Shown here in pieces: positions 6,519-23,069 of a stretch of 64,000 nucleotides of DNA; the first letter of the stretch is position 1, and the number at the start of each line of letters is the position of its first letter. Under the pieces are notes generated by a model. That model saw nothing but the letters and a program-made list of their open reading frames with translations. It had not been told where the DNA came from and made no database searches. Origin of the DNA: a bacterium ADurb.Bin212 (lineage in GTDB: Bacteria; Patescibacteriota; UBA1384; XYA2-FULL-43-10). The DNA is taken from positions 2,015-66,014 of the forward strand of contig MWCM01000005.1 in the NCBI GenBank assembly GCA_002070055.1. Direction: 5' to 3'. A program made the position numbers and the translations under genes.

Positions 6519-7055
6519 TTATATTGTAATCAAATCCTTAATTTTTTCAAAAGTTTTGGATCCAATTCCCTTAATATTTTGGACTTCCGAGATATCTTTA
6601 AAACCTCCGTTATTATTGCGATATTCGATAATCCGGGAAGCGTAAGCGGGACCTATGCCAGGAAGAGTGTCGAGCTGAGAAGCACTAGCGGTATTCAAAT
6701 TAATCTTAGCACTTAGAGGAGAGCTGTTAGCTGTTGTTTTTGTTGCCACACCCGCTACATCTCCGCTGTCTGTAGTAGGCGCGGAAACCTCATTTGTCGT
6801 TGCAATTGTAGCAATGCCGTTGATCTTATTTTCCAGTTCGGCGATTTTTACATTCTGCTCATCAATCTTTTTTGATAATTGCTCTGCTCCTCCATTATTC
6901 ATTATTCTTAATTCATTATTCTCACTCGTTCTCCAATACAAATATCCCCCGCTCAACATAATGCATAAAAGAAGCACGGAGCCGATATACCACCTATAAC
7001 GAAAAATAAATTCATCTGTTTTACTATCTTTTTTCCCGGATTGTTCTGATATCAT
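6519..7055 (-). CDS. comEA: ComEA-like helix-hairpin-helix DNA-binding protein
   Basis: N-terminal TM helix. C-terminal LNTASASQLDTLPGIGPAYASRIIEYRNNNGGFKDISEVQNIKGIGSKTFEKIK is a tandem HhH ComEA signature. Confidence 0.8.
   Translation of the reverse strand: MISEQSGKKDSKTDEFIFRYRWYIGSVLLLCIMLSGGYLYWRTSENNELRIMNNGGAEQLSKKIDEQNVKIAELENKINGIATIATTNEVSAPTTDSGDVAGVATKTTANSSPLSAKINLNTASASQLDTLPGIGPAYASRIIEYRNNNGGFKDISEVQNIKGIGSKTFEKIKDLITI
6892..6921. repeat. AT-rich mini-repeat family 1 copy (CCATTATTCATTATTCTTAATTCATTATTCT), in frame inside comEA
   Basis: 31/31-nt identity with 15607-15637 (iscS). Encodes ELRIMNNGG on the minus strand. Confidence 0.7.
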
Positions 7056-7065
7056 ACCCCCCGCC

Positions 7066-7356
7066 TTAGAAATGTTTTTCCTCGTAGAATCTATCTAATT
7101 TTAGAAATAATTTATGCTTATCCGAGCCTTCTGATACTCGATATAGCTTGTATTCAAATTCTTCGAAATTAATATCTACGGGAGAAATTGTGACCTTAAT
7201 TTCATCTAAACTCCCTAAGTGATATCTTTCAAGAAATTTATCTACACCACTTATGCCATTTTTCTGGCAATATGAATTGATAATATCTACCACATTTCCA
7301 ATTTCATCTTCCGGCATCTCGATACGGGGATACGGGTTTGGCATCTCTCCTGGCAT
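7066..7356 (-). CDS. hypothetical protein (96 aa)
   Basis: ORF only. No motif recognised. Confidence 0.35.
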   Translation of the reverse strand: MPGEMPNPYPRIEMPEDEIGNVVDIINSYCQKNGISGVDKFLERYHLGSLDEIKVTISPVDINFEEFEYKLYRVSEGSDKHKLFLKLDRFYEEKHF

Positions 7357-7376
7357 AACAATCCTTTTATTAAAGA

Positions 7377-9665
7377 TTACTCAAAATGTTTTGAGCTGTT
7401 AAAGACCTCTAATTCATTTTTGATTAGAGGATAAGTATTTTTCCAATTTTCTTCTTTGACAATCATTTCGGAGGTTTTTGTGGCGGCTTGTATCAAATGC
7501 TGATTACTTAAATCTGCAAATTTAAGATTTAAATAACCGCTTTGCTCTAAACCAAATATATCACCGCCACCGCGATTATTTAAGTCCTGCTCTGCTAAAC
7601 GGAAGCCATCGTCAATCTGCTCTAGCGCTTTTAGCCGAGACATAACTTTCTCCGAGTCCGAAGAAGTAAAGAGAAAGCAAAATGATTGGTGTTCGCCTCT
7701 ACCCACTCTGCCTCTAAATTGATGAAGCTGAGCTAAACCAAACCTCTCCGCATCTTCAATCATCATTATGCTGGCGTTCGGCACATCCACACCTACCTCG
7801 ACCACCGATGTGCTAACTAGAATATCAAGTTCAGCAAAAGAGAATTCAGACATGATTTTCTCTTTCTCTTTTGCTTTCATTTTGCCATGCAACATACCAA
7901 TTCTCAAATCTGAAAACACGTTGTTGCTTAGATTCTCGAATTCACCAACCACCGTCTTGCGGTCAATTTCTAACAGATCCATTCCATAATTTTGATTTTT
8001 GATATTTGATTTTTGATCTTCAGAATTCTCATCAATAAGTGGAACAACCACAAAAACCTGCCTGCCCGCTTTAACATGGGCTCTGATAAAATCGTAGGCT
8101 TTTGGGCGGTTTATCTCATCAACCACTCTGGTCTTTATTGGCTTGCGATTTTTAGGCTTCTCTCTTATCACACTTACATCCAGCTCCCCAAACACAATCA
8201 ATTGTAAAGATCGGGGTATGGGAGTAGCAGTCATGGAAAGAAAATGAGGAACCAGACCAGGATTTAGCTTGTTAGCTTGTAGCTTTTTAGGATCAAAGTT
8301 AGCTTCTAACAGTACTCCAGTTCCTTTGTTTTGATCCCTCGAAGCTACTCGGGACAAGTTTTTGATTTTTACACTTTTATTTTCTCTCAGTGCCTGGCGC
8401 TGATTCACTCCAAATCTGTGTTGTTCGTCAACAACAACTAAAGCCAAATTCGGAATCTTTTCCAGAAAGAGTAAAGCATGGGTGCCTATGAGAATCTTTG
8501 GCTTATCAAGGTTTATGCCAGCTCTCAGTTTTTTGTTTGACGATACTATCAGCTCCGCCTCAACATCTTTTGGTAACAAAGATTTAAAAGTCATAAAGTG
8601 TTGTGATGCTAAAATTTCTGTTGGGGCCATTATGGCGGAACTTTTCCCTTCGTTATATGCAGAATAAGCGGCCATCACAGCCAAAACTGTTTTTCCGCTA
8701 CCCACGTCACCGTTTAGCAAACGATTCATCGGAGTATCTGTTGCCAAATCGCCCGCAATATCTTGCCAGGCGCTTTGTTGGTCGGCGGTCAGTGCAAAAG
8801 GCAAATTCTCCATCAACCGCCGCACTGCTTCTGTGCCGGTATTAATTTTTGGGGCTTGATCTTTTTTAAGCTCCTGCTTTATTACCTTACCGCGCAAAGA
8901 TATAAGGAACAATTCATTAAAAGCCATTCTGCTTTTGGCTTCTTCTAGTTCTTGCATATTCTTTGGCTCGTGCAAAATCCTTATTGCCTTATCCAGCGGC
9001 AACAATTCATTTTGTTCAAGAATACCCTCTGGCAAATAATCTTTAATGTCTTCAATTTTATTTATTAGACTTTTTATTAGCTTTGCTATGTAATGAGTAG
9101 TTACCCCATTTGTTTCTCTGTAGACAGCAACAATCTTAGGCCTGTCTGCCCAATCCGGTGATTCCATAACATAATCTTGCCCGAAGGGGTCAAATTTTAC
9201 CTTGCCGTTTAGAATGATTTCTCTACCTAAACCAAGCATTTTAGAGAGGTAGGGTTGATTAAACCAGACTACTTTTATAATGCCCGTTTCATCTTCGACT
9301 ATCGCCTCGGTAACAGTAAAACCCCGCCTGCGCGTTTTTTTATTGGCAATGCCTACAATCCTAGCTTTAATTGTTAAATTGCTAGAATTGTTAAATTGCT
9401 CTCCTGTTATTCCAGAAGAAACCCCAGCACCCTCTTTTGTCACTTTGATGCTTGATGTTTCATTGGTTATTGAATATTGATTATTGGATCTTGCGATATC
9501 CGAAATTTTGCTGATATCGCTATAGTTCAAATACTTCCGCGGAAAATAGTAGATTAAATCACCAATCGTCTCTACGCCCATTTTAGCCAATTTCTTGGCT
9601 GTTTTCGGCCCCACCCCGGGCAAATACTGCACCGGAGTATCAAATTTTTCTTTCTGTGTGTCCAC
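7377..9665 (-). CDS. recG: ATP-dependent DNA helicase RecG (with low-complexity insertions)
   Basis: HhH LPGVGPKTAKKL at the N-terminus, Walker A DVGSGKT, DEQHRFGV (DExH), and FRGRVGRG motif VI. Insertions encoding NIKNQNYG and similar. Confidence 0.9.
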   Translation of the reverse strand: MDTQKEKFDTPVQYLPGVGPKTAKKLAKMGVETIGDLIYYFPRKYLNYSDISKISDIARSNNQYSITNETSSIKVTKEGAGVSSGITGEQFNNSSNLTIKARIVGIANKKTRRRGFTVTEAIVEDETGIIKVVWFNQPYLSKMLGLGREIILNGKVKFDPFGQDYVMESPDWADRPKIVAVYRETNGVTTHYIAKLIKSLINKIEDIKDYLPEGILEQNELLPLDKAIRILHEPKNMQELEEAKSRMAFNELFLISLRGKVIKQELKKDQAPKINTGTEAVRRLMENLPFALTADQQSAWQDIAGDLATDTPMNRLLNGDVGSGKTVLAVMAAYSAYNEGKSSAIMAPTEILASQHFMTFKSLLPKDVEAELIVSSNKKLRAGINLDKPKILIGTHALLFLEKIPNLALVVVDEQHRFGVNQRQALRENKSVKIKNLSRVASRDQNKGTGVLLEANFDPKKLQANKLNPGLVPHFLSMTATPIPRSLQLIVFGELDVSVIREKPKNRKPIKTRVVDEINRPKAYDFIRAHVKAGRQVFVVVPLIDENSEDQKSNIKNQNYGMDLLEIDRKTVVGEFENLSNNVFSDLRIGMLHGKMKAKEKEKIMSEFSFAELDILVSTSVVEVGVDVPNASIMMIEDAERFGLAQLHQFRGRVGRGEHQSFCFLFTSSDSEKVMSRLKALEQIDDGFRLAEQDLNNRGGGDIFGLEQSGYLNLKFADLSNQHLIQAATKTSEMIVKEENWKNTYPLIKNELEVFNSSKHFE
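7990..8018. repeat. TTTTGAT/ATTTGAT heptamer tract in frame inside recG
   Basis: TTTTGATTTTTGATATTTGATTTTTGATC. Encodes QKSNIKNQNYG on the minus strand. Confidence 0.6.
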
Positions 9666-9672
9666 AATTATG

Positions 9673-9703
9673 CTTAATCCTTAATTCTGTATTCTTAATT
9701 CTC
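9673..9703. repeat. TTCTTAATTC-type repeat immediately upstream of the recG start
   Basis: CTTAATCCTTAATTCTGTATTCTTAATTCTC. Confidence 0.5.
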
Positions 9704-9783
9704 TATTCCATTTCGCTTTTTGCATAATACATTTTGCATTTTGCATTAAGCATTGTATTAATTATACCCTCAAGCTCCGTAAA

Positions 9784-9812
9784 TTGACAAACTTTGATTT
9801 TTATTATATAAT
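9784..9812 (+). promoter_or_regulatory. consensus sigma70-type promoter TTGACA-N17-TATAAT upstream of the Lnt-like gene
   Basis: Exact TTGACA (9784-9789), a 17-nt spacer, exact TATAAT (9807-9812). Followed by a leader with a 12-bp inverted repeat (CCTTTGAGCCTA...TAGGCTCAAAGG) and AGGAGG 6 nt before the ATG at 9975. Confidence 0.5.
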
Positions 9813-9974
9813 GATATAATTCGCACGCAGCGAAGTGTGTTTTTTGTGTACCTTAACAACTTTTCCTTTGAGCCTAATTAGGAATTAGGCTTTAGGTCTT
9901 AGCTTTTTTGGATAACCTAATTTCCAGCTAGGCTCAAAGGAGTAAAAACAAATCCCCTCAGGAGGGACGCCGCC

Positions 9975-11288
9975 ATGATCGAAACACTGCACATCGCGGC
10001 CGCCTTGGCGGCCATCCTGTCGTTTCACGTCGCATTCAGGTGGGAGAAGGCGGGCGGGCTGATTGTTGTGTACATGGCCTGCCTCTTCTTCCTAACCGGA
10101 GTCCCCGACCCCTTGCGGGCGGGGACGTTGGGCATGGCCATCGGGTTGGGCACTGTGCCCTTCCAGATGTGGTTTATGCTCAGATTCCTGGGAGGGAAGG
10201 CGCTTGGCCTGTGGCTCTACATGAGCTCACTGCCGGCGATCTTTCTCCTGCTGTCCTCGTACCTTAGGGGCAGCCACGAACTTATGGTGCTCGCTGTCCC
10301 CTTCGTTTGGAGCATCATCGAAGTGGGAAGGAGCGAGTGTGGCAGGTTGCGCTACAGCTGGCTCATACCGGCTCATGCGCTTTCCGCTAGGCCGTGGATC
10401 AAGCTCCTCGGAGCAGGTGTCTACGGTTTCAGCTTCCTCGTCATGGCAGCCCTTGCGCTCTGCGCGGTGCTGCCGGCCTACCTCTGGCCGGTCGTCGTTG
10501 GGGCAGCCCTTGGCGCCTTGATCGTTCGGCAGAGCCCCTTCTGGACGCATAAGCACCTTCAGGTGGCCGGCTTCCAGATTGAGGCAGGCGTGGACGGCGG
10601 CACGGGCCTGCGTTTTGCAGGATACGACGAAATCCTGCGCCAACTCCACCGCTGCCTCCACCGCCACCCCAACGCCGAACTGGTAGTGGCACCCGAGTAC
10701 GCGCTACCAGACCAACCCGAGGCAATGCTTCTGGCATGGTGCCGAAAGTTCGGCAAGTGGCTGCTTATCGGCGGCCGGGAACACCTTGACGACGATGGCG
10801 GGTTCAGAAACACCGCCTATCTCGTCTCCCCCCTCGGAGAGGTATTCCGGCAGGGCAAAATGGTGCCCATACCCACGGCACCGGACGGTCTGCCCGCCAC
10901 CGAGCAGAAGCCGCTTCGTAACTCCTTGGGCACTCTTGGCATCTGCATCTGCTACGACCTAAGCTTCGCCTCGGTCGTAGCACCGCTCGTTGAGAGTGGT
11001 GTGCAGGCGCTGGTGGTGCCATCAATGGACCTTGCGGAGTGGGGTCCGCACGAGCACCGGCTTCACGAGAAGTGGGCGAGGATTATGTCCTACGTCTACT
11101 CCTTGTCGGTGTTCCGTGTGGTCTCCTCCGGCCAGTGCCAACTGGTTGATTGCGGAGATGTCCTTGCGGTCAGCCAGGACGGCACCATCGGCGACAACTT
11201 GCCCATGCACTTGGGCGAAGTGCCTACCGACTGGAGGATCCTCCGCCACCTCCTTCCTCCGCTCGTGCGCGCGCCGAGTGAGGAGTAA
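9975..11288 (+). CDS. lnt: apolipoprotein N-acyltransferase (Lnt)-like: polytopic N-terminal domain plus C-terminal CN-hydrolase domain; high-GC
   Basis: About 6 TM helices, then a nitrilase-superfamily domain. Candidate catalytic residues are Glu in LVVAPEYALP, Lys in FRQGKMVPIP and Cys in LGICICYDLSF. Visibly GC-rich relative to the flanks. Confidence 0.7.
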   Translation: MIETLHIAAALAAILSFHVAFRWEKAGGLIVVYMACLFFLTGVPDPLRAGTLGMAIGLGTVPFQMWFMLRFLGGKALGLWLYMSSLPAIFLLLSSYLRGSHELMVLAVPFVWSIIEVGRSECGRLRYSWLIPAHALSARPWIKLLGAGVYGFSFLVMAALALCAVLPAYLWPVVVGAALGALIVRQSPFWTHKHLQVAGFQIEAGVDGGTGLRFAGYDEILRQLHRCLHRHPNAELVVAPEYALPDQPEAMLLAWCRKFGKWLLIGGREHLDDDGGFRNTAYLVSPLGEVFRQGKMVPIPTAPDGLPATEQKPLRNSLGTLGICICYDLSFASVVAPLVESGVQALVVPSMDLAEWGPHEHRLHEKWARIMSYVYSLSVFRVVSSGQCQLVDCGDVLAVSQDGTIGDNLPMHLGEVPTDWRILRHLLPPLVRAPSEE

Positions 11289-11312
11289 CAACTTCTGCGC
11301 ACAGAACACGGA

Positions 11313-11352
11313 AGCCCCGCTCTACCTCGTAGAGTGGGGCTTCTTGCTTTTC
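11313..11352 (+). terminator. intrinsic terminator after the Lnt-like gene
   Basis: GCCCCGCTCTAC-CTC-GTAGAGTGGGGC hairpin followed by TTCTTGCTTTTC. Confidence 0.5.
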
Positions 11353-11392
11353 TATCTTGATTTTTTCGGTGATTGTGTTAATATGCGGTTAC

Positions 11393-11640
11393 TTGCAAGA
11401 GGTTTGAGGGCGGCGCTTCGGCGGCATCTCCAGCGGTAGCCTTGGCATCACAAAGGACATCCGCACGAGCTAAGTTTGCTCGGGAGGCCCAAGTAAACCG
11501 CAGCCATTCCTTTTGCAAGGAGGTCAGCCCGCCTTTCGGGTGAACCGGGGTAGAGAGCGTTGTAGCAATGTTGCTGTTACACCCCGCCAGCACTCATTGC
11601 TGCTCTCTACCCACCTTTTTTAAGTCAAGAGCTAGCGGCT
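11393..11640 (+). ncRNA. candidate structured RNA or leader (GC-rich, promoter-like start, tandem terminators at the 3' end)
   Basis: Promoter-like TTGATT-N16-TAATAT (11359-11386). About 250 nt of GC-rich sequence with long inverted repeats. Ends with a GGGTAGAGAGC...GCTCTCTACCC hairpin plus TTTTTT, and a second hairpin AGAGC-TAGCG-GCTCT plus T8. Class not identified. Confidence 0.3.
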
Positions 11641-11711
11641 CTTTTTTTTGTTTTAAAAATAGATTCCATGTTATGATTTGAATAATAGATCAATTAAATA
11701 GTGAGGTATAA

Positions 11712-12083
11712 ATGCCAGGCGAAACAATCGGACCCGTATTAGAAGCAGAAACAAACAACCCAGAGAAAGAAGAGCAGCCAATAGGTGCTGGACCATATTT
11801 TTTAGCAGGAAAACCAAAAAATGAAAGCTATTTAGGAGATAATACCATAATTACTCTAGCTGTATGGCACGGCACACCGGTTTTAGCTCCCAGCAGCCAA
11901 CTGGATCGTGGCCTAGAGCTAGATGTAACAGTTGCCACAGACGAAAAAGAAGAACTAAGAACCGAAAACGGTGGTTATGATATCGGTGGTATATATAAGC
12001 TGGAAGACGGAGAACTTATCACCAAAAGAGCATACGAAAATAAATACGGCACAACTAATAGAACCGAAGAAATAGCCGCTTAA
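11712..12083 (+). CDS. hypothetical protein (123 aa)
   Basis: ORF with RBS GTGAGGT before the ATG. Followed by a terminator. No motif. Confidence 0.4.
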   Translation: MPGETIGPVLEAETNNPEKEEQPIGAGPYFLAGKPKNESYLGDNTIITLAVWHGTPVLAPSSQLDRGLELDVTVATDEKEELRTENGGYDIGGIYKLEDGELITKRAYENKYGTTNRTEEIAA

Positions 12084-12090
12084 AATTATT

Positions 12091-12119
12091 AAAAAATGAG
12101 CTTTTAAGCTCATTTTTTA
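12091..12119 (+). terminator. intrinsic terminator (ATGAGCTT..AAGCTCAT hairpin plus T-run), potentially bidirectional
   Basis: Palindrome flanked by an A-run and a T-run. Confidence 0.5.
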
Positions 12120-12159
12120 AATTATGTAATTACTTTTGTGATATTTGATATTTGATATT

Positions 12160-13404
12160 TTATTTTTCTATCGTTCCCCCGCCGATCACTTCGTCTCCAA
12201 TAAAAAACACAGCGCTCTGGCCGGGGGTGACGGCTCTCTGTGGTTCATCAAATATTACCTTAATCGTTCCTTGCTTAATTCTTAATCCTGAGTTCTTAAT
12301 CTTGCAACCCACACTTTTCGCCTGTGATCGGATTTTGACTGATAAGTTAGTAGCGGGTAGCGGGTAGTGAGTAGGGACATTGATCCAACTTAAATTAGAT
12401 ACAACCATCTCTTTCTTATAAATCTCGCTATCTTCCCCGACTATTAACCGGTTTTTTGACCGATCAAACCCAGCCACATACAAAGGTTTTTTATCATAAA
12501 GGGATTCCTCGGCTTCTCGCAAAACCTGCGAGTCGCTCGGAATGACAGTATTAACGTTCTTCAGTTCTTTGGTTTCTCGGTTCTTAAGTTGTTGGTTAAT
12601 TCCCCTCCTCTGTCCTATCGTATAATTAATCAACCCTTCATGCCTTCCCACAATATTACCTCCTGTATCAACAATATCTCCTGACTCAATACAGCTGTCT
12701 TTTACCTCATTCTTTAAAAATTCCCGATAATCCGTATTTTGCAAAAAACATATCTCTTGACTCTCTTTTTTTTCGGCAACTGGTAAATCCCATTTTTTCG
12801 CCAGCTCCCTCACCTCTTTTTTGGTTAATTCACCAAGAGGAAAGATTACTTTAGATAGTTGCTCTTGATTAAGCCGGTAAAGCATATAAGACTGGTCTTT
12901 GGAGTTATCGAATCCAGCAAGTAAATGATAAATTGTTGTATTGTTAAATTGTTTTTTATTCGAATAATTAGAATTTGGATATTTATTGGTTATTGCGCCT
13001 TGGTTATTGGTTGTTTCCGAATCTTTGATTCTGGCATAATGTCCTGTTGCCAACTTTGCACATCCAAGTTTCTCTGCCTCACCTATGAGTAGCTTAAATT
13101 TGATCTCCGGATTACAAATCGTGCATGGATTCGGAGTGCGCAAATTTTTGTATTCGGAAACAAAATACTCTACCACTACCCTTTTGAACTCTGCTTCTGC
13201 ATCAATCTCATAGAACGGGATCTTTAGAAACTCTGCCACCTTTCTAGATTCAAGCAGACCATCATCTACGCCATCATGCTTCCACATCTTTAAAAAGAGC
13301 CCGATTACATCGTAGCCCTCATCTTTTAATATTTTTGCTACTGCAGCACTATCTACGCCCCCGCTTAAGGCTACAGCGACTTTTATTTTGGAATTATGAA
13401 TCAT
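12160..13404 (-). CDS. mnmA: tRNA-specific 2-thiouridylase MnmA (with low-complexity insertion)
   Basis: PP-loop VAVALSGGVDSAAVAKIL near the N-terminus, and C-terminal domains typical of MnmA. The longer ORF extension to 13485 runs through mini-repeat sequence, so I prefer the ATG at 13404. Confidence 0.85.
   Translation of the reverse strand: MIHNSKIKVAVALSGGVDSAAVAKILKDEGYDVIGLFLKMWKHDGVDDGLLESRKVAEFLKIPFYEIDAEAEFKRVVVEYFVSEYKNLRTPNPCTICNPEIKFKLLIGEAEKLGCAKLATGHYARIKDSETTNNQGAITNKYPNSNYSNKKQFNNTTIYHLLAGFDNSKDQSYMLYRLNQEQLSKVIFPLGELTKKEVRELAKKWDLPVAEKKESQEICFLQNTDYREFLKNEVKDSCIESGDIVDTGGNIVGRHEGLINYTIGQRRGINQQLKNRETKELKNVNTVIPSDSQVLREAEESLYDKKPLYVAGFDRSKNRLIVGEDSEIYKKEMVVSNLSWINVPTHYPLPATNLSVKIRSQAKSVGCKIKNSGLRIKQGTIKVIFDEPQRAVTPGQSAVFFIGDEVIGGGTIEK
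12274..12305. repeat. TTCTTAATTC-type repeat in frame near the mnmA 3' end
   Basis: CTTAATTCTTAATCCTGAGTTCTTAATCTTGC. Peptide KIKNSGLRIKQG. Confidence 0.5.
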
Positions 13405-13420
13405 GAATAATGAATAATGC
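13391..13420. repeat. family 1-related repeat (GAATTATGAATCATGAATAATGAATAATG) at the mnmA start
   Basis: Same GAATAATGAAT units as the other copies. Overlaps the mnmA start codon region. Confidence 0.5.
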
Positions 13421-13453
13421 AAAATACTATAATTCGCTATTCGCAACCCGTTA

Positions 13454-14266
13454 TTATACTTTTTTCTGCGCGGCAGAAACCACATTCTTCATAAGCATCG
13501 CTACCGTTACCGGACCAATTCCACCTGGCACTGGCGTATAATATGAAGCTTTTTTATAACAAGCCCCATCCACATCACCGGCTAACTTTCCGCCCACTTC
13601 GGTTGTTCCGGCATCAATTAGTACAGCACCCGTCTTGATCATATTTGGTTTAATAATATCGGCCACTCCGGTTGCCGAAATTATAATATCTGCATCAAGG
13701 GTTATTGTGCCCAAATATGGCGTGTCCTTGTAGGCGATTCTAACCTCATTAGCGGTTCTCTCCAACATCCTGGCAATAGGCGAACCAACCAAGAAACCCT
13801 TACCAATAATAGCTACCTTTGAATCTGCCAGATTAACACCGGATCTTTCTATAGCTTGCATTATCGATAAAGTAACAGGAGGGCGGAAATCGCAACTCAG
13901 ATTGCTACAAAACCTAAGTCCATCAACATCTTTTTCTGGAGAGATAATTGAAATAATATCAACAAGATCAAATTTTTTCGGCATCGGAACCTGAACCATT
14001 ACTCCCACGACTTTTTGATTTTCGTTCAACTCCTTGATACGTGTTTCTATCTCTGTTTTTTCGACATTATCAGAATACTTAATTAAGTCAAAATGAATCC
14101 CAACTTTCTCGGCGGCACGTTGCTTGACCTCAATGTAACGAGCGCTGGCGAAATCATCACCGACCCAAATAACAGCCAAGACCGGCTCGACCCCTAATTG
14201 ATCAACCTGAACTTTAAGTTGATCTAAGATTTCATCCCTAATTTTTTTGCCATCAAAGTAATTCAT
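13454..14266 (-). CDS. folD: bifunctional methylenetetrahydrofolate dehydrogenase/cyclohydrolase FolD
   Basis: YIEVKQRAAEKVGI, GKGFLVGSPIARML and PVPGGIGPVTVAMLMKNVV motifs. Start taken at MNYFDGKK. Confidence 0.9.
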   Translation of the reverse strand: MNYFDGKKIRDEILDQLKVQVDQLGVEPVLAVIWVGDDFASARYIEVKQRAAEKVGIHFDLIKYSDNVEKTEIETRIKELNENQKVVGVMVQVPMPKKFDLVDIISIISPEKDVDGLRFCSNLSCDFRPPVTLSIMQAIERSGVNLADSKVAIIGKGFLVGSPIARMLERTANEVRIAYKDTPYLGTITLDADIIISATGVADIIKPNMIKTGAVLIDAGTTEVGGKLAGDVDGACYKKASYYTPVPGGIGPVTVAMLMKNVVSAAQKKV

Positions 14267-14346
14267 GATTCGTAATTCAAACACAAATCTGTAACACAAA
14301 TCTTCACAAATGGGGAATAAATAATGATTGGTGATAATTTGCCTAA

Positions 14347-14760
14347 TTATTTGAGTTGTAATCTCCTCTTATAATCCTCAATTGCTTTCTTTATAGCATC
14401 TGCAGACAATATTGAACAGTGATATTTTTGCGCTGGTAATTTTCCCAGACTGTCATTAATGTCGTCACGGGTAATCTTTTCAGCTGATTCTAAACTCTTT
14501 CCCTTAGCCAACTCCGTCATCATACTACTTGCTGCAATAGCCGCAGCACAGCCAAGAGTTTTAAACTTAATATCAGAGATGTAATCTTCCACTTTTTCCT
14601 TTCCACTTTTTCCTTTTACCTTGCGAGTTTTTATTTTAATAAAAACTCGCATCACGTCTCCGCACTTAAGATTGCCAACTTCACCGACACCATCAGCGTC
14701 TTTTATCTCCCCGACATTCCGCGGGTTTTCAAAATGATCTAAAACTTCTTTTGTATACAT
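14347..14760 (-). CDS. iscU: Fe-S cluster assembly scaffold IscU/NifU-like (with Lys-rich insertion)
   Basis: LKCGDVMRVFIKI and FKTLGCAAAIAASSMMTE, the conserved Cys ligands of U-type scaffolds. Confidence 0.85.
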   Translation of the reverse strand: MYTKEVLDHFENPRNVGEIKDADGVGEVGNLKCGDVMRVFIKIKTRKVKGKSGKEKVEDYISDIKFKTLGCAAAIAASSMMTELAKGKSLESAEKITRDDINDSLGKLPAQKYHCSILSADAIKKAIEDYKRRLQLK

Positions 14761-14828: not shown

Positions 14829-16163
14829 TTATTTGCCATATGGGCTCATTTGCCTTAATTTTTTTATGATGCCGGGAAGTATTTCTATTACACGATCGAT
14901 TTCCTCCTCCGTATTATGTTTCCCTAAACTAAAACGAATCGAGCCGTGGGACCACTCTGGTGATACGCCTATAGCTGTTAAAACATGGCTTGGTTCCAGC
15001 GATCCCGATGTACAAGCGCTCCCACTAGATGCCGCTATGCCCTCTTTATCAAGCATTAATAGAATTGATTCCCCTTCGGCATTCTTAAAACTTACATTAA
15101 CATTATTTGGGGATCTTCTTTTGAGGCAACCGTTGACTCTGGTATCAGGAATCTTCATTAAACCTTTAATTAATTTATCTCTGAGTTGCTTTAATCGTTT
15201 AGTTTCATCGTATAAAATCAATTCCGGCAAAAGTTTTCCAGATTCCTCGATTTTGCTATCAGCTTTGGCTTTATGCATCTTAACCAGTGCAGCACTCAAA
15301 CCGGCGATGCCGGCCACATTCTCTGTTCCGGCACGCATTTTATTCTCTTGGTTGCCACCGACTATCTGCCTGATTATTGGCGTGCCATTTTTAACGAACA
15401 GCGCGCCCACGCCTTTTGGTCCGTAAAATTTGTGAGCAGAGAAAGTAAGCAAATCAACACCCAAATATCTGACACCGGTTTGGAAATATTCCATTGCTTG
15501 CACCGCATCGGTGTGGAAATAAATTTGCTTTGCAAATTTATTTCCCGAATTATGAATAAAGAATGAAGAATTATGTTTATTCGGCTCAGTAACATTAGAC
15601 TTTTTCCCATTATTCATTATTCTTAATTCATTATTCTTCGCTATCATCTGTGCGATTTGCTTAATTGGTTGCACTGTGCCTATCTCGTTATTAACATACA
15701 TAATGCTCACCAAAACCGTGTTGTCTTTAATCTCCGCGTCTATATCCTCAACTCGTATCACACCGTTTTTCTGCGGAGTTACATAGCTAGCCTCTATCAG
15801 GCCCTGTTTCTCTAACTCCTTCACAGTATCCAAAACAGAGTGGTGTTCTACGGCACTTGTTATAACATGAGGCGTCGCTCTATTATTTTTCTGATCTGTG
15901 TTACTATGATATGCGTCAATCAAACCTTTTATAGCTAAGTTATTGCTTTCGGAGCCACCAGAGGTGAAAATAACCTCTTCGGGCTGGCAATTGAGACTAA
16001 AGGCTACAGTGTCCCTTGCTTCGTTTAAGATATTTCTAGCTCCCAAACCAAAGCTATGTGCAGATGATGCATTGCCCCAAAATTCCTTCTGAACCTTGTT
16101 CATAAGCAGAGCTACCTCCGGATCAGGAGGAGTTGTCGCCGAATGATCTAAATATATCTTCAT
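14829..16163 (-). CDS. iscS: cysteine desulfurase (group I IscS/NifS type) carrying an in-frame mini-repeat insertion
   Basis: IYLDHSATTP, PLP-lysine motif SAHKFYGPKGVGALFV, and active-site loop SSGSACTSGSLEPSHVL. Start taken at MKIYLDH (16163). Confidence 0.9.
   Translation of the reverse strand: MKIYLDHSATTPPDPEVALLMNKVQKEFWGNASSAHSFGLGARNILNEARDTVAFSLNCQPEEVIFTSGGSESNNLAIKGLIDAYHSNTDQKNNRATPHVITSAVEHHSVLDTVKELEKQGLIEASYVTPQKNGVIRVEDIDAEIKDNTVLVSIMYVNNEIGTVQPIKQIAQMIAKNNELRIMNNGKKSNVTEPNKHNSSFFIHNSGNKFAKQIYFHTDAVQAMEYFQTGVRYLGVDLLTFSAHKFYGPKGVGALFVKNGTPIIRQIVGGNQENKMRAGTENVAGIAGLSAALVKMHKAKADSKIEESGKLLPELILYDETKRLKQLRDKLIKGLMKIPDTRVNGCLKRRSPNNVNVSFKNAEGESILLMLDKEGIAASSGSACTSGSLEPSHVLTAIGVSPEWSHGSIRFSLGKHNTEEEIDRVIEILPGIIKKLRQMSPYGK
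15547..15575. repeat. inverted, diverged partner of family 1 repeat (GAATTATGAATAAAGAATGAAGAATTATG) inside the cysteine desulfurase gene
   Basis: Imperfect reverse-complement of the 15606-15637 copy, about 30 nt away. Together they form a ~90-nt MITE-like unit encoding SSFFIHNSGNK...NNELRIMNNG. Confidence 0.5.
15606..15637. repeat. AT-rich mini-repeat family 1 copy, in frame inside the cysteine desulfurase gene
   Basis: Identical core to 6892-6921. Encodes NNELRIMNNGKK. A partner in inverted orientation lies at 15547-15575. Confidence 0.7.
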
Positions 16164-16177
16164 TTGTCTTCTATCCT

Positions 16178-16387: not shown

Positions 16388-16453
16388 AATTATCGTTAAA
16401 TATATGTTACATGTAATGTAACATTTGTAATTAGCTCTGTCAACTTTGTCGAT

Positions 16454-17257: not shown

Positions 17258-17329
17258 GTTAAAAGTTCATCAAGTTTGAAAGTTGGTGGATTTTGCTTTA
17301 TGAACTTAATAGGCATTCCGCTTTATAAA

Positions 17330-18166
17330 TTATTTAAAGGTTACGAATAAGATACAGGATATCAAAACAATAAAGGCAAAAACATCTCTTTTGAACAGTT
17401 TCTCTCTAAACCAAAAGAACGACAAGAAATAGACTAAAAAAGGACCCAAAACAAGAATCATAGTGGTTTCGGTCACGCCAAGTTTATCGAAACCATAAAA
17501 TTTTAAAACCATCTGAACAACCCCTAGCATAGCAGTTAGTAGCAACAAAAAGAATGATGATTTCGAAAAGCCTAACATTTTGGGTCTGTAGGCAAACACA
17601 AAAACTATTGCCAATATTGTAGTTCTTAAAAAATATAACGACACCGGCGACAAGACATCTAAAAGCATTTTGATGAAAATTGATTCAATAGACATCAGGA
17701 ACATGGCCAGCATTGTCATCCAGGCAATTTTGCCGATTTGTACATGATGATGACGAAAACGTGTGAGCAGCAAGGCCAAAGAGGCCACGACTCCTGCTAA
17801 AAAAGTTTGCCAATTACGTTCCTGTGGTAAAAATATCTCTGCCAAGATAATTGTAACCATTGGAGACAGCAACATAATAAGCTCAAACTCGTGGATATCT
17901 TCTTGTTGGATTCCCCTATAATACAGGATATTCCATGTCACAGCGGTTGCCACCATAATTATGACCAAAAAGAGATATTTGGGTGTAAGCAACAAATCCA
18001 GATTAACAGAACCCCACTTTGCCAACAAAATTGCCGTAAAAATTGCTAAAAACACAAACAACATCGGGACAAAACGAAATAGTGGAATCTTTCTTTTGCT
18101 CAGCAGTATCTTGTCGGTTACTATCCCGCCGGCATAACCTATCGAAGCAATAATAGCGTTTAACAC
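17330..18166 (-). CDS. EamA/DMT-superfamily membrane transporter
   Basis: About 10 TM helices arranged as two EamA-like halves. Confidence 0.55.
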   Translation of the reverse strand: MLNAIIASIGYAGGIVTDKILLSKRKIPLFRFVPMLFVFLAIFTAILLAKWGSVNLDLLLTPKYLFLVIIMVATAVTWNILYYRGIQQEDIHEFELIMLLSPMVTIILAEIFLPQERNWQTFLAGVVASLALLLTRFRHHHVQIGKIAWMTMLAMFLMSIESIFIKMLLDVLSPVSLYFLRTTILAIVFVFAYRPKMLGFSKSSFFLLLLTAMLGVVQMVLKFYGFDKLGVTETTMILVLGPFLVYFLSFFWFREKLFKRDVFAFIVLISCILFVTFK

Positions 18167-18238
18167 TAACCCTCCAAAGTAATTTTCAATTTAAAATTTA
18201 TAATTTAAAATAAATGTTGAATGAGGAAAATAATAAAA

Positions 18239-19669
18239 CTAGGATTCAATTCTTGGGAAAAGAGGTTCTGGCTTGAGTGTTTCCAGCTGTATTTTCATTT
18301 TTTCAGCGGTTTCAGGCATAAACACATCGAGGCTCGATGCTATTTGCTTTAACTCACTATATGCTTGGTTAAGGGTGGCTTCCGCAGCTTTATTTTCCCC
18401 GCTCTTTATCTTCTCCCAGGGCTTTTCGTCATCTATCATACGGTTTACTTGACCAACAGAGTTAATTACCTGCTCAAGACCCTCAGCGAATTTAAACTTT
18501 TCGATATACTCTGCAGTATTAATTGGATCAGATTCAAAGGTGTGTAATTCTATTCCGTAGCGGTTGATCATTGACAGCACCCTCTGATTCAAATTGCCTA
18601 TTCCATTACATAGATCAGCAGTGTATTTGGCGTCCATCTTCTCCCATGTAAGATCGCCGTCACTGTTATAAGGAAGAGATGACAGTAATATATATCTGGT
18701 TGCGTCCCGACCATATCTGTCAATTATCTCTTGAGGAAAAATAACATTACCGATACTTTTTGACATCTTCTTGCCGTCTATAGTCAGATATTCGTGGACA
18801 TAAATCTTTTTGGGCAACCTTAGACCGGCAGATAAGAGTAGCGCGATCCAGTATACCGCATGGAAACGCATTATTCCTTTACCTATCATGTGGGTGATGT
18901 TGTCCCCATTTAACCAGAACTTTTTGTACTCATCGTCATCCGATGAATACCCAAGGGCGGTAATATAATTAGCCAAGGCGTCCACCCAAACATACATTAT
19001 TTGATCTTCATCACCAGGAACAGGAACACCCCAGTTCTGCGCACGCTCTTTGGATCGTGATACAGAGAAATCTTCTAGTCCGCCTCTAATAAAGCTCAGT
19101 GTTTCATTTCTGCGGAAACTAGGAATAATTTCTATCTCATCATTTTCAATCAATTCTAGTAGCTTTTCCTGATAATTTGATAGTTTAAAAAAGTAATTCT
19201 CCTCCTCCACTATCTCCAATGGCGAATCATGCTCTGGACATTTGCCGTCGCAAAGATCGGCCTCCGTTTTGAATTCCTCACAGCCGACACAGTAATAACC
19301 TTTGTAGTTTTTCTTATATAGATCTTCCGGTTTCAACGCCTGCCACATCTTTTTACAGCCATCAAAATGCTGTTTGCTGGTGGTGTGAATAAACTTGTCG
19401 TAAGACAAATTTAAAAGCTCTTTTAGCCCCTCAAACTCGCTACTATTTTTAGCTACAAAATCAGCCGTATCCATACCTGCTTTTTTGGCGGCCAATACAT
19501 TTTTAAGGCTGTTTTCGTCTACACCTGATAAAAAAAAGACGTCATTTTTTTGACGGTATTGGCGGGCCAAAACATCTGCTTGAATCTTCTCCACAGCATG
19601 GCCCACATGTGGGATAGAATTAACATAATCAATAGCAGTGGTAATATAAACGGTTTTATTCTCTGACAT
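18239..19669 (-). CDS. metG: methionyl-tRNA synthetase (short form)
   Basis: HIGH-type motif PHVGHA, KMSKS present, and a Cys-rich zinc knuckle CVGCEE...CPEH. Confidence 0.9.
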   Translation of the reverse strand: MSENKTVYITTAIDYVNSIPHVGHAVEKIQADVLARQYRQKNDVFFLSGVDENSLKNVLAAKKAGMDTADFVAKNSSEFEGLKELLNLSYDKFIHTTSKQHFDGCKKMWQALKPEDLYKKNYKGYYCVGCEEFKTEADLCDGKCPEHDSPLEIVEEENYFFKLSNYQEKLLELIENDEIEIIPSFRRNETLSFIRGGLEDFSVSRSKERAQNWGVPVPGDEDQIMYVWVDALANYITALGYSSDDDEYKKFWLNGDNITHMIGKGIMRFHAVYWIALLLSAGLRLPKKIYVHEYLTIDGKKMSKSIGNVIFPQEIIDRYGRDATRYILLSSLPYNSDGDLTWEKMDAKYTADLCNGIGNLNQRVLSMINRYGIELHTFESDPINTAEYIEKFKFAEGLEQVINSVGQVNRMIDDEKPWEKIKSGENKAAEATLNQAYSELKQIASSLDVFMPETAEKMKIQLETLKPEPLFPRIES

Positions 19670-19728
19670 AAAAATTGCTCCGGATTAGGGACTCAATAAT
19701 CACAGGATAACAAATTAACTGTATATTC

Positions 19729-20307
19729 TCAAATATATTTGATCATCTCAAAATCATCACAGGAGCACGGGTTACCACAAACTGTGCACTCAAAGTTATC
19801 AATGCCGACTTTTTTTGAATGTTCATACCAGGTTTTTTTATGAAGTTTAAGTGGTTCAAAGCCAAAACTTTCGAACAATTTCTGTGAGGCATTACCAGGA
19901 GAAGACTGCCAGCAGTGTACGCCAACTGCCTTAGCTCCGATGTTTTTTTGCTCGATCAATGACTTTTTTAATAGTTTTTTACCTATACCCATGCCTTGAT
20001 ATTTTTCATGAACTGCGATTAAAACCACGTAGCCATAGTTTTTCTTGTCGCAAATAATTTTGTCTAATGAAAAATATTTGTCTTCCATCTCCTCAAAAAT
20101 TCGTCCCGGATATCTTTGAACGATAACTCCTACAATATCAGGCCCTATTTTTGCAATAAGCATCTCACCAACCGAGAGTGATTTGAAGTAATCAATTCCC
20201 CAATCGCTATCACGCACAACTTGGCAATTTATTATATCATTAGCCTGAATAAAGTCATTCTCTGTAACAGGTAAAGATATCCTAATTTTTGAATTTCTAT
20301 CTGCCAT
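19729..20307 (-). CDS. GNAT-family N-acetyltransferase with Cys-rich C-terminus
   Basis: Acetyl-CoA binding motif QGMGIGKKLLKK. C-terminal CTVCGNPCSC. Confidence 0.8.
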   Translation of the reverse strand: MADRNSKIRISLPVTENDFIQANDIINCQVVRDSDWGIDYFKSLSVGEMLIAKIGPDIVGVIVQRYPGRIFEEMEDKYFSLDKIICDKKNYGYVVLIAVHEKYQGMGIGKKLLKKSLIEQKNIGAKAVGVHCWQSSPGNASQKLFESFGFEPLKLHKKTWYEHSKKVGIDNFECTVCGNPCSCDDFEMIKYI

Positions 20308-20308
20308 T

Positions 20309-21031
20309 TTAATTTTTAATTTTTGATCTTTTAATTATTAATACGAATTCACCTTTTAGTTTATGATCATTTAGATCTTCAGCTACTTCTTTGATTGTGC
20401 CGCCCCAATACTCCTCGAACATTTTTGTCATCTCGCGAGCGATAAAGACCTGTGTTTCTGCTCCAAAATATTCTTTTATGTCGTCTAAAGTTTTTTCTAT
20501 CCTGAAAGCCGACTCGTAAATAACAATAGGTACATCAACAACTGAAAGATGTTTTAACTGTGTTTGGCGCCCTTTCTTCTTGGGCAAGAAACCAGCAAAA
20601 TAGAACTCTTTATCGACCAATCCACTCACAGATATTGCCGAAGTTACAGCTGAAGCTCCCGGTATTGGAATAATTTTGATATTTTCATTGTCATTTTGAT
20701 TTTTGATATTTACATTTTGAATTAATTTTTGTCCCGGATCCGATATTCCAGGCGTTCCGTTGTCGGTAACATATGCGACACTCCTGCCAGCCAAGAGTTC
20801 AGCTATGACTTCATCAATTGACTTCTCAAGCGAATGTTGATGAATCGCTTTCAGCGGTTTTTTTATTTCGAGCTTATGAAGTAATAGCCCTGAAACCCGT
20901 GTATCTTCACACACCACTAAATCGACGCTCTTTAAAATTTCGATTGCGCGCAAAGTAATATCCCCCATATTACCAATGGGAGTGGCTACAATATATAAGT
21001 TCCCAATTGTTTCATTGTTAAATTGTTTCAT
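20309..21031 (-). CDS. rsmI: 16S rRNA (cytidine1402-2'-O)-methyltransferase RsmI (tetrapyrrole-methylase fold)
   Basis: GNLYIVATPIGNMGDITLRAIEILKSVDLVVCEDTR, the canonical RsmI N-terminus. Confidence 0.85.
   Translation of the reverse strand: MKQFNNETIGNLYIVATPIGNMGDITLRAIEILKSVDLVVCEDTRVSGLLLHKLEIKKPLKAIHQHSLEKSIDEVIAELLAGRSVAYVTDNGTPGISDPGQKLIQNVNIKNQNDNENIKIIPIPGASAVTSAISVSGLVDKEFYFAGFLPKKKGRQTQLKHLSVVDVPIVIYESAFRIEKTLDDIKEYFGAETQVFIAREMTKMFEEYWGGTIKEVAEDLNDHKLKGEFVLIIKRSKIKN
20671..20731. repeat. TTTTGAT-type tract in frame inside rsmI
   Basis: Encodes NIKNQNDNENIKII. Similar tracts at 23295-23329 (rsmA), 12137-12167 (downstream of mnmA) and 20307-20336. Confidence 0.55.
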
Positions 21032-21151
21032 TGTTCAATTTTCTATCAGTGACAATCAGTGAAATAAATCAGTGGTGGTGCTCTCCTTATGAAGAAACTC
21101 TAGCATATTCACGCCTAAAATGCTATTCTATATTCGCGCTCGAGGTGAAAA

Positions 21152-21490
21152 ATGAAAAACGACAACGGTCTTGCTGATGGATTCGGGGTGGCAACCTTTA
21201 GTACACCTCCGATTTCCAATGATGCGGGTCAGTCTGTGGGCAGGAGTATGATTGTCTATGTCGCCTTCCGGATGGAGGACGGAAGCGACGCTACCGCTAC
21301 AATTGTTGGATGGTGGAGCCTAGTGGGGCTAGCACCCTCTGGCCTTGATCTTAGAGGCTTGAGAATAGCGGGCTATCCCTGCAAGGTGTATGACTCAAAG
21401 AACAGCAATGCGGAAGTTGTCGGATTTCTGGATTTCCAATCCGTCTACTTCTGCAGTGAGCGCAGAACAGAGCCCGCTGATCCTGATTAA
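21152..21490 (+). CDS. hypothetical protein (112 aa) in a short high-GC island
   Basis: ORF preceded by GAGGTGA 5 nt before the ATG. Visibly GC-rich. No motif. Confidence 0.3.
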   Translation: MKNDNGLADGFGVATFSTPPISNDAGQSVGRSMIVYVAFRMEDGSDATATIVGWWSLVGLAPSGLDLRGLRIAGYPCKVYDSKNSNAEVVGFLDFQSVYFCSERRTEPADPD

Positions 21491-21644
21491 TCGGGAGGCG
21501 GGCCAAACCCTAAAATTATTATAGTATTATTATTGTAAGACAATTTTTAGTATTTTGGGATTAGAAATTTAATTATAAATTAGGATTTAAAAATTAGAAA
21601 TTAATAAACCCCATATTCCCAACCGTGTATGTTGTCCGTATAGT

Positions 21645-23015
21645 TTAGAACAACATCGCCCAAATACTGGCAATGCCGGCAATTGACATAAGAGCCACTG
21701 TGATCCAACCCATTATTTTGCCCAGCCAACCGCTTCTTCTTTCGCCCATAACTCTTTTACTGGAAGCTAAAATTACAATACAAACCAAAATCACCGGCGC
21801 AGCTAAACCGTTTGCCACCGCTGAATATATCAAAGCTTTTATCGGGTCTATGCCGGTAAAATTTATGCCTATGCCGATAAGCATCGAAATTATTATTATT
21901 CCATAAAAAGCATAGGCTTGCTTTAGTTTTAGATGTAAACCTTGCCTCCAACCAAAACTTTCCGCTATGGCATAAGAGCTGGAACCGGCTAAGACCGGTA
22001 TACCAAGAAGGCCCGTGCCGATAATGCCAAGCGCGAATAAAAAGTAAGAATAATCTCCGGCAAACGGCCTTAAGGCCTCCGCAGCTTGAGCCGCTGTATC
22101 TATATTTGTAATGCCATTTGCATTTAAAGCTGCTGCACAAGTTACGATAATAAAGAACATTACCAAGTTCGACAAAAACATGCCGCTCCAAACATCTGTC
22201 CGCATGTTCTTTACCTCTTCGTTATTCACATCATTTTGACGCAATTTTATATTGGTTAGACCTTTTTCTATGCGCTCCTCAACTTCCTGAGATGTCTGCC
22301 AAAAGAATAAATAGGGAGAAATAGTTGTGCCCAAGATGGCACAAATCAGAATGATGCTATCGCGGCTTAAACTCATATTTGGAGTAACTGCGCTTTTTAG
22401 TATCTCGCGCCAGTTTATTCCATCAATCAGTAGCGCAGAGAGCACGTAAGCAAGTAAAATCATCGCCAACCACTTAAGAACATTAGCATATTTTTTATAG
22501 GCACTGTAAATCTGCAAGAAAAGTATAATCAGGGCAAACAAAACCACCGCAAGCAGATAGTTTACCCCCCAAAACAATCTGATCGCCTCCGCCATAGCAC
22601 CCAAATTGGCCCCGATATTTAAAGTGTTGGCAACAAATAGAAGCACCGTGCAAAAAATTAGCACCTTACGGGAAAAATGTATTCGAATGTTTCCGGCCAG
22701 CCCCCTGCCGGTGACCATGCCTATCCTGGCACACATTTCTTGAACCACGGACATTAAAGGATAGGTGAATGCCGCTAACCACAAAAAAGCGTAACCGTAT
22801 TGCGCACCGGTTTGTGAATAGGTAGCAATTCCACTTGGATCATCGTCGCTAGCTCCGGTAGTTAAGCCCGGACCCAAAGAGTGCCAATAGCTACGCAAAG
22901 TAGCAATGGACTTTCCTGCCACCTTCTGCTCCAAACTCTTCGAAACCTCGACTGTTTTTTCGAGACCCTTTGCAGGAGACTCAACAATCTTTTCGAAGAC
23001 ATTCTTCTGATTCAT
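21645..23015 (-). CDS. mntH: NRAMP-family divalent metal (Mn2+/Fe2+) transporter
   Basis: DDDPSGIATYSQTGAQYGYAFLWLAAFTYPLMSVVQEMCARIGMVTGRGLA aligns with the NRAMP DPGN..TD..GAQFGY...LSARLG.VTG signature. Multi-pass membrane protein. Confidence 0.8.
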   Translation of the reverse strand: MNQKNVFEKIVESPAKGLEKTVEVSKSLEQKVAGKSIATLRSYWHSLGPGLTTGASDDDPSGIATYSQTGAQYGYAFLWLAAFTYPLMSVVQEMCARIGMVTGRGLAGNIRIHFSRKVLIFCTVLLFVANTLNIGANLGAMAEAIRLFWGVNYLLAVVLFALIILFLQIYSAYKKYANVLKWLAMILLAYVLSALLIDGINWREILKSAVTPNMSLSRDSIILICAILGTTISPYLFFWQTSQEVEERIEKGLTNIKLRQNDVNNEEVKNMRTDVWSGMFLSNLVMFFIIVTCAAALNANGITNIDTAAQAAEALRPFAGDYSYFLFALGIIGTGLLGIPVLAGSSSYAIAESFGWRQGLHLKLKQAYAFYGIIIISMLIGIGINFTGIDPIKALIYSAVANGLAAPVILVCIVILASSKRVMGERRSGWLGKIMGWITVALMSIAGIASIWAMLF

Positions 23016-23032
23016 TTGTGCCCCTCCGCCAC

Positions 23033-23069
23033 GAATATAGAATAACGAATAATGAATTATGAATAATGG
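23033..23069. repeat. family 1-related repeat (GAATATAGAATAACGAATAATGAATTATGAATAATGG), intergenic between the NRAMP gene and rsmA
   Basis: Shares the GAATAATGAATTATGAATAATGG core. Confidence 0.55.

Follow-up and report, generated by a model that had tools for sequence, protein, structure and literature searches.

A 31-nt sequence common to comEA and a cysteine desulfurase gene of a Patescibacteria genome as a probable array of a degenerate heptanucleotide repeat

Two unrelated genes of bacterium ADurb.Bin212, a member of the Patescibacteriota, carry the same 31 nucleotides in frame within a stretch of 64,000 nt (contig MWCM01000005.1 of assembly GCA_002070055.1, positions 2,015 to 66,014), hereafter referred to as the window. 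We consider it probable that this 31-mer, CCATTATTCATTATTCTTAATTCATTATTCT, is a four-unit array of a heterogeneous heptanucleotide repeat, (GAATNNN)n, comparable to the heptamer repeats of cyanobacteria that are named STRR, and that it represents one of many repeat families with a period of 7 nt. A discrete mobile element of the type of the Rickettsia palindromic elements (RPE) is not demonstrated. What is new in relation to the cases already described is the host phylum, the degenerate GAATNNN unit, the frequent residence in frame within housekeeping genes and the maintenance of the core register at orthologous sites.

The 31-mer is found twice on the + strand of the window, at 6892–6922 and 15607–15637, with no further copy at up to 3 mismatches, and the number of matches expected by chance is 0 (100 shuffles). 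Both copies lie in open reading frames (ORFs) of the minus strand, namely comEA (6519–7055), coding for a ComEA-type helix-hairpin-helix (HhH) protein, and iscS (14829–16163), an Aminotran_5 cysteine desulfurase gene, and both are translated into NNELRIMNNG. The sequence-only reading that preceded this work had pointed out these identical in-frame copies with their common peptide, together with related copies at the mnmA start and in the gap between the NRAMP gene and rsmA; all of them were found to be real, the comEA copy ending at 6922 and not one base earlier, at 6921. The 31-nt stretch itself stood, yet its tandem structure had been overlooked, as had four further arrays (upstream of recG, at the folD start, in the second arm within iscS and inside rsmA). 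On the gene strand, the 31-mer consists of an A, the four heptamers GAATAAT, GAATTAA, GAATAAT and GAATAAT, and a final GG. Tandem Repeats Finder (TRF) detected period 7 with 4.1 copies at 6893–6921 and 15608–15636, and the similarity between the two loci stops at the edges of the 31-mer. As read from the sequence, one of its three sense frames is free of stops and two of its three antisense frames are open. Since only that one sense frame can be translated, the identical peptide in ComEA and IscS is forced and uninformative on the origin of the copies.

Searching the whole window for GAA[TC]NNN repeated at least 3 times revealed 8 arrays of the GAATNNN type, all located within 6.9–23.8 kb. Seven of them have at least 4 units, each with at least 14 of 16 core positions in the GAAT register, which was reached in 0 of 20 shuffles. 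No GAATNNN array was detected in 24–64 kb, despite the presence of the housekeeping genes uvrD, groEL, pyrG, efp and ssb in that part. The period of 7 nt is in excess well beyond this unit: exact runs at lag 7 amount to 9 in the window, compared with 0–3 at every other lag from 3 to 24, and TRF reported about 25 period-7 arrays belonging to at least 10 unit types. Thirteen of the 25 are coding (comEA, recG twice, mnmA three times, nifU, iscS twice, rsmA twice, uvrD and ychF), and the other 12 are found at gene junctions, a part of the window that amounts to only about 10%. The excess was measured on the 64 kb together with about 110 kb of syntenic loci from relatives (designated by L-numbers, orthologous proteins being designated by P-numbers), and was present in most of them, with 3 lag-7 runs in L004, 4 in L005, 9 in L006, 5 in L008 and 6 in L012, compared with 0–1 at lags 5, 6, 8 and 9. 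Arrays occupy intergenic spacers, lie over start and stop codons, or reside in frame in permissive segments of proteins (Table 1).

Solo arrays always carry GAAT on the sense strand of the gene (comEA, recG, folD and rsmA in the window, and those at L005 5941 and L006 15554), and antisense arrays are found only as 3′ arms of inverted pairs. Such pairs follow the build (GAATNNN)4-loop-(NNNATTC)4 and are capable of forming hairpins. Compared with shuffled sequences, the iscS pair with its 31-nt loop has a folding z score of −3.25 and the pair between rsmA and the NRAMP gene one of −3.94, and the pair at the mnmA start folds hardly better than shuffles (z −0.40). Overall, z ranges from −3.1 to −6.0 for the iscS and intergenic hairpins; the comEA, rsmA, recG and folD arrays are solo and unstructured, with local structure being absent at comEA (z +0.47). 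The inner ends of several arms read ...ATGG/CCAT..., and this is the reason why the 31-mer ends in GG. Hairpin copies have in common only the GAAT/ATTC cores of the 7-nt units, their loops being unrelated and their variable positions different. Across six lineages, all 20 of the 20 consensus pairs of the iscS hairpin correspond to invariant GAAT/ATTC cores, with 0 compensatory changes, and structure as the selected feature of this hairpin is not demonstrated. The presence of arrays in non-coding DNA, and in reverse complement as hairpin arms, bears out the earlier proposal that the likeness has its cause at the DNA level and is not a convergence of proteins.

The host proteins accommodate the arrays in different ways, and the expectation that the copies would appear as insertions when compared with homologues was correct in one case only. 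Residues 179–212 of IscS have no counterpart in solved cysteine desulfurase structures, and the Pfam domain is split at this point. In the AlphaFold model (mean predicted local distance difference test, pLDDT, of 81.6), residues 186–210 fall below a pLDDT of 50, between a helix at 167–184 and a strand at 215–219. The array region of iscS is a true insertion of about 34 residues in a loop that is permissive and, as modelled, disordered, and the prediction that the insert would map to a loop of the modelled structure was borne out. By contrast, the rsmA array segment aligns with native residues of solved KsgA and brings 3 extra residues only, and the comEA array stretch is as long as the unrelated sequence found there in the closest ComEA relatives. 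As regards the region immediately upstream of iscS, a small PhdYeFM antitoxin-like gene lies between tatD and iscS in L004, L005, L006, L008 and L334, and on the window's own contig (L001) no gene with a PhdYeFM Pfam match was called between these two genes.

The nearest relatives of both IscS and ComEA are Berkelbacteria and Patescibacteria metagenome-assembled genomes. At the iscS site, the build (GAATNNN)4-loop-(NNNATTC)4 is also found in five lineages, L004, L005, L006, L008 and L012. L004, with an IscS protein 87% identical to that of the window, has the identical 31-mer; the two iscS genes have an overall nucleotide identity of 81% and their hairpin loops are alike at 23 of 30 positions. 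Many orthologues show a baseline of 22 residues at this place (IscS site 2), and inserts take others up to 88 residues; these inserts comprise several repeat types, including a long SDLRSPY tandem. Site 2 of P0048 holds about 66 inserted residues in the form of SDLRSPY-like repeats of 7 residues, which implies that another heptanucleotide array occupies this insertion site. Comparison of the filled site of L006 and L008 with the empty site of L334 gives a clean 25-residue difference with no flanking target-site duplication. L334, the locus of P0074, has no GAATNNN array across 13 kb, and L006 has three array loci.

At the comEA site, (GAATNNN)3–5 arrays are present in L010, L011, L012, L254, L255 and L262, in orthologues that are 41–59% identical; three of these array-bearing orthologues come from a metagenome scan in which the relatives listed have at most 45% identity. 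Because orthologues at 41–59% identity carry arrays at the same site, the comEA copy is not a recent insertion. The nearest ComEA relatives, P0123–P0125, are without a GAATNNN array at this site. Among orthologous arrays, unit number differs between distant lineages (3–5), and the arrays are identical in all assemblies of this species.

Other slots show how the occupant changes from one lineage to another. In the nifU-folD spacer, L006 has a hairpin of GAATNNN units (z −5.95); the hairpin found there in L334 is of CACACAG/CTGTGTG (z −3.9), and that of L008 is of the CAAAATC type (z −2.5). The mnmA start bears ATTC-type arrays in the window and, in a similar arrangement, in L012, and a GAACAAT array in L004; in the latter locus (5296–5470) the GAACAAT array lies across the mnmA start codon and an inverted CTAAATC/GATTTAG heptamer pair is found upstream. 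One slot may thus hold arrays of differing heptamer families, or none, in different lineages. The recurrent trait is the presence of heptamer arrays, often inverted, at permissive slots, rather than one sequence.

Table 1. Heptamer arrays and hairpin arms of the window, with coordinates, strand and context.
Feature	Coordinates	Strand	Context
Solo sense array = exact 31-mer	6892..6922	-	comEA codons 45-55, just past N-terminal hydrophobic stretch
ATCAAAA array	7990-8017		Translated in recG
Sense array, units GAATAGA, GAATTAA, GAATACA, GAATTAA	9681..9708	-	16-43 nt upstream of recG GTG start at 9665
CAAAATG heptamer array	9709-9754		Adjoins 9681-9708 array
Degenerate AATTAAG (GAATTAA-type) array	12274..12300	-	mnmA C-terminal domain; peptide NSGLRIKQG
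CCAATAA array	12983-13012		Translated in mnmA
Array antisense to mnmA	13391..13419	+	mRNA sense (NNNATTC)4; covers mnmA start codon at 13404 (MIHNSK...)
Short sense partner GCGAATAGCGAATTATAG	13427..13444	-	Upstream of mnmA start; weak hairpin with 13391-13419
Three-unit sense array, units GAATTAC, GAATCAT, GAATTAC	14258..14278	-	Provides folD start codon at 14266
GAAAAAG array	14587-14632		Translated in nifU
Whole iscS insertion: arm + 31-nt loop + arm	15528..15640	-	IscS residues 179-212
3′ arm of iscS hairpin	15547..15574	+	mRNA sense (NNNATTC)4; peptide HNSSFFIHNS
Exact 31-mer = 5′ arm of iscS hairpin	15607..15637	-	Peptide KNNELRIMNNG
Five-unit array	23033..23069	+	mRNA sense (NNNATTC)5; between rsmA stop 23083 and NRAMP start 23015; 3′ arm
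Partial sense arm GAAATAGAGAATAGCCAG	23089..23106	-	Last rsmA codons; pairs with 23033-23069
TATCAAA array	23300-23328		Translated in rsmA
Sense array, units GAATTAA, GAATTAA, GAATTCA, GAATTAA	23757..23784	-	Inside rsmA; peptide ELRIKNSELS
AGGGAAA array	40602-40630		Translated in uvrD
TAACCAA array	48263-48297		Translated in ychF

Under the heptanucleotide repeat reading, arrays would arise and turn over locally via slippage in the 7-nt register. Inverted partners could be generated by strand-switch or quasi-palindrome templated copying, or perhaps by conversion between arrays, and selection would act as a filter, so that the arrays surviving inside genes would be frame-preserving, free of stops and located in disordered or variable segments. 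The identity of the two 31-mers may reflect how few sequences the family allows (GAATAAY / GAATNNN / GAATAAT / GAATAAY followed by GG) or a short-tract conversion.

Several observations weigh against such a simple scheme. The units are heterogeneous and slippage alone does not yield heterogeneity; moreover, slippage was not directly seen, the arrays being the same in all assemblies of this species. Lineages with the iscS hairpin occur in at least 4 places of a rough neighbour-joining (NJ) tree, interleaved with empty sites, and this scattering is also compatible with repeated insertion of a mobile hairpin. The comEA and iscS arrays have been kept at orthologous sites although protein identity is only 41–62%, and the longest perfect nucleotide run between the iscS genes of the window and L004 (41 nt) contains the 5′ arm, although the loop for which this arm codes is dispensable. 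In the seven comEA arrays, changes at variable heptamer positions amount to 13/42 at codon positions 1/2 and 7/21 at position 3, and those at core positions to 1/56 and 3/28, respectively, the core count being partly a matter of ascertainment as most of these arrays were found via their GAAT cores. The persistence of the cores, the 41-nt run and a change that is independent of the codon position suggest constraint or homogenisation beyond neutral repeat dynamics, and the candidates for GAAT-core persistence over deep divergence are concerted evolution and a constraint at the nucleotide or RNA level.

Heptameric repeats had been noted as over-represented in bacteria in a 2007 report, as cited in PMC4692102, and three tandemly repetitive heptanucleotides from Calothrix PCC 7601 are mentioned as cited there too. 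Bacterial heptamer repeats have been known for decades, yet neither their mechanism nor their function is established (PMC4692102, PMC4679880). The arrays described here resemble STRR in having tandem 7-nt units, many families per genome, an excess of period 7, an enrichment in non-coding DNA and no known function, and GAATNNN-type arrays also occur in the cyanobacterium Okeania. They differ from STRR in their host, a small-genome member of the Patescibacteria (candidate phyla radiation, CPR), in their short and heterogeneous arrays of 3–5 units, and in that about half of them lie in frame in housekeeping genes, some kept at orthologous sites over deep divergence. Another parallel is (GGGANTN)n of Xanthomonas, with heterogeneous arrays of mostly four units, some of them in inverted pairs able to form stem-loops, and the GGGGA(T/C)T repeats of Nostoc (PMC4692102); as in our case, about 4 core positions are conserved in each 7-nt unit and the others are variable. 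However, those repeats are G-rich, quadruplex-capable and intergenic, while the arrays of the window are A/T-rich, without quadruplex potential and often coding. The TAACTGA direct repeats known from Beggiatoaceae, cyanobacteria and Bacteroidetes are located a few nucleotides upstream of start codons, with occasional cases within ORFs; their distribution is patchy across phyla and the mechanism of their spread is not known (PMC4679880). Their forward orientation contains stops in all frames, which makes repeats within ORFs rare and constrained (PMC4679880). The arrays studied here are likewise heptamer direct repeats, in part close to start codons. In contrast to the TAACTGA repeats, which are near-perfect, mostly intergenic and confined to protein ends when in ORFs, they have degenerate units, keep one sense frame open and are found in the middle of enzymes.

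When one genome per species was scanned with GAATAAYGAATNNNGAATAAYGAATAAY, representing GAATAAY arrays, at least 120 stretches were returned. Among the matches listed, the hosts were Bacteroidota, Cyanobacteriota (Okeania), Bacillota, Ignavibacteria, Fibrobacter, Chloroflexota, Planctomycetota, Gammaproteobacteria, Woesearchaeota and Kuenenbacteria, and most of the arrays were perfect and in non-coding DNA. An excess just past gene ends, again among the matches listed, is confounded by the stops that the array in forward orientation contains in all frames. In Candidatus Kuenenbacteria (L197, 2467–2508 and 5152–5179), one GAATNNN array makes up a whole spacer, including the TAA stop of the preceding gene and the ATG of the one that follows; a second covers a stop codon, and behind it lie a G+C-rich stem and a T-run that resemble an intrinsic terminator. 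Neither GAATAAT-type arrays nor repeats of this kind in Patescibacteria were met with in a limited literature search, in which the literal motif turned up only in an unrelated insect paper. A cyanobacterial origin of the window was rejected, the HIP1 motif GCGATCGC occurring only once, as was the reading of the unit as a methylation site (GANTC) or as promoter-like, since most units lack such sites.

Perhaps the arrays are more than tolerated repeats. A strand-specific cis-element, in which GAAU repeats in 7-nt register are bound by a protein or RNA and are under purifying selection even in coding sequence, is a possibility that we would keep in mind, though on balance we do not expect it. It is compatible with the origin favoured here, to which it adds selection for maintenance, and the element might serve translation initiation or coupling, RNA processing or RNA stability. 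All solo arrays are in the sense orientation, which is harder to encode than antisense, with one open frame against two; yet such a bias could result from purine loading, as the GC and AT skews are both negative on the + strand across 1–26 kb. Start codons are touched at 4 of the 8 window loci, the Kuenenbacteria spacer joins stop and start in a single array, and a comparable proposal has been made for the TAACTGA repeats (PMC4679880). The cores are conserved whatever the codon position, the 5′ arm of iscS lies within the longest perfect run shared with L004, and arrays are kept at the same sites across 41–62% protein identity, although core conservation is in part due to ascertainment, arrays having mostly been found by their GAAT cores. 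On the other hand, many close relatives are array-free, and in other lineages the same slots are taken by other heptamers. No reader is known, neither Rfam nor a tRNA scan gave a match at the arrays (the only Rfam match in the window being tRNA-Leu at 5380–5461), and the housekeeping genes of 24–64 kb carry no GAATNNN arrays. The more specific claim that (GAATNNN)n is read in its 7-nt register on mRNA or single-stranded DNA by a factor, and is kept by selection even where translated, appears doubtful to us.

The sequence-only reading had interpreted the 31-mer as a mobile or recombining short element behaving like an RPE. RPEs are said to have been described by Ogata et al. in 2000, reportedly as families of 100–150 bp with similarity over their whole length. 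The likeness lies in a palindromic repeat translated in frame within unrelated essential proteins without disturbing their fold; residence in frame at permissive sites was found for comEA, iscS, rsmA and mnmA, and the iscS copy adds a permissive loop and a hairpin. Similarity over the whole length, target duplication and, as far as the ORFs of the window show, a transposase are the parts of the comparison that failed: the copies are alike in the 7-nt register only and no defined spreading element is seen. Formulated in full, this alternative supposes a hairpin of about 75–105 nt with termini GAATNATG...CATNATTC, transposed or copied to new sites including ORFs, with the comEA 31-mer as a half-element, and we regard it as rather unlikely. 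Hairpins of one build do occur at unrelated sites (iscS, rsmA-NRAMP, nifU-folD of L006 and the metRS end of L008), with recurrent ...ATGG/CCAT... inner ends, the 31-mer is identical at two loci, and the insert would be translated as a disordered loop according to the model, as for RPEs. Filled and empty iscS lineages are interleaved, some being close in the rough NJ tree (P0021 with a 25-residue insert, P0074 with none), and L334 lacks GAATNNN arrays over 13 kb where L006 has three loci. Nevertheless, the copies are dissimilar outside the heptamer cores, other heptamer families occupy the same slots in other lineages, and neither the comEA nor the rsmA array counts as a length insertion when compared with orthologues or solved homologues. 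The identity of two arrays is not very improbable either, given the few variable positions of the GAATNNN family. The termini GAATTATG...CATAATTC are inverted, as in MITEs (miniature transposable elements with inverted repeats), but no direct repeat flanks them when L006 and L008 are compared with L334. No transposase, integrase or reverse transcriptase was found among the ORFs of the 64-kb window, nor was any RAYT-like ORF. REP/BIME/REPIN and MITE-type intergenic hairpin repeats (PMC3116915, PMC3733652, PMC10969869) are reportedly also short, dispersed, imperfect palindromes at gene 3′ ends; in contrast to REP/REPIN, the arrays of the window lack a conserved tetranucleotide tag of the GTAG/CGTC type, have arms made of tandem heptamers and also lie inside ORFs.

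A motif at the protein level, in which NNELRIMNN(G) and HNSxFxxHNS are selected as peptides, such as a heptad-like linker in ComEA, and the likeness of the DNA is a by-product of AT-rich codon usage, seems very improbable, the non-coding and antisense copies largely speaking against it. The peptide recurs in ComEA orthologues as NNE[LSV][RG]IMNNG, and seven residues equal three heptamers; judging from the sequence, the downstream ComEA segment might form a coiled coil. Yet four window loci have such arrays in non-coding DNA and reverse-complement copies exist as well, radical replacements (L to S, R to G) are seen at variable heptamer positions with the cores fixed, two unrelated proteins have 31 identical nucleotides in common, and the IscS segment, disordered in the model, is missing from many orthologues. 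Finally, a collapsed or chimeric repeat, which the sequence-only reading had held up as a possible refutation, has a negligible chance of being the explanation, as comEA with the identical 31-mer is also present on two contigs of other samples, one from JGI and one from ENA, making three independent assemblies, the window sequence is also found on contig JAKJEL010000001.1 (GCA_022705445.1), the IscS protein filed under bacterium ADurb.Bin212 is identical, both host ORFs are intact and homologous arrays exist in orthologues.

Some other features of the window deserve mention. Two ORFs stand out from its G+C content of about 40%. The first (9975–11288, about 56% G+C) codes for 437 aa matching CN_hydrolase weakly, as does a gene at the corresponding position of L012, between mnmA and recG; the second (51904–54009, about 60%) codes for 701 aa with a C-terminal Amidase_3 domain. 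Both may be acquired or of unusual composition. A giant ORF (26977–37689; 3570 aa), which contains Laminin_G_3, fn3 and Pur_ac_phosph_N domains, presumably codes for a surface protein, and no heptamer arrays were detected in it. The ORF of ribosomal protein S6 (54480–55286) has 268 aa with the S6 domain restricted to residues 12–100, and its long C-terminal tail is encoded by tandem repeats of 6, 9 and 12 nt (54831–55231).

In a limited literature search, we found no earlier report of heptamer arrays being abundant in a CPR/Patescibacteria lineage with reduced genomes, of their translation within essential enzymes (IscS, RsmA, MnmA, RecG and ComEA), or of the 7-nt core register of one family being kept across 41–62% identity while the encoded residues change. 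Many odd insertions in CPR proteins are accounted for by such arrays, which can also lead homology searches astray by way of spurious common peptides (ELRIMNN, HNSxFxxHNS) and can shift predicted start codons. Since codon and heptamer positions are out of phase, coding arrays allow constraint at the nucleotide level to be separated from that at the protein level, given enough orthologues. If the cis-element interpretation is true, a second, non-protein code would be written into the loops of Patescibacteria housekeeping genes, and for the 35-year-old puzzle of heptamer repeats there would be a system that allows coding constraint to be told apart from repeat constraint.

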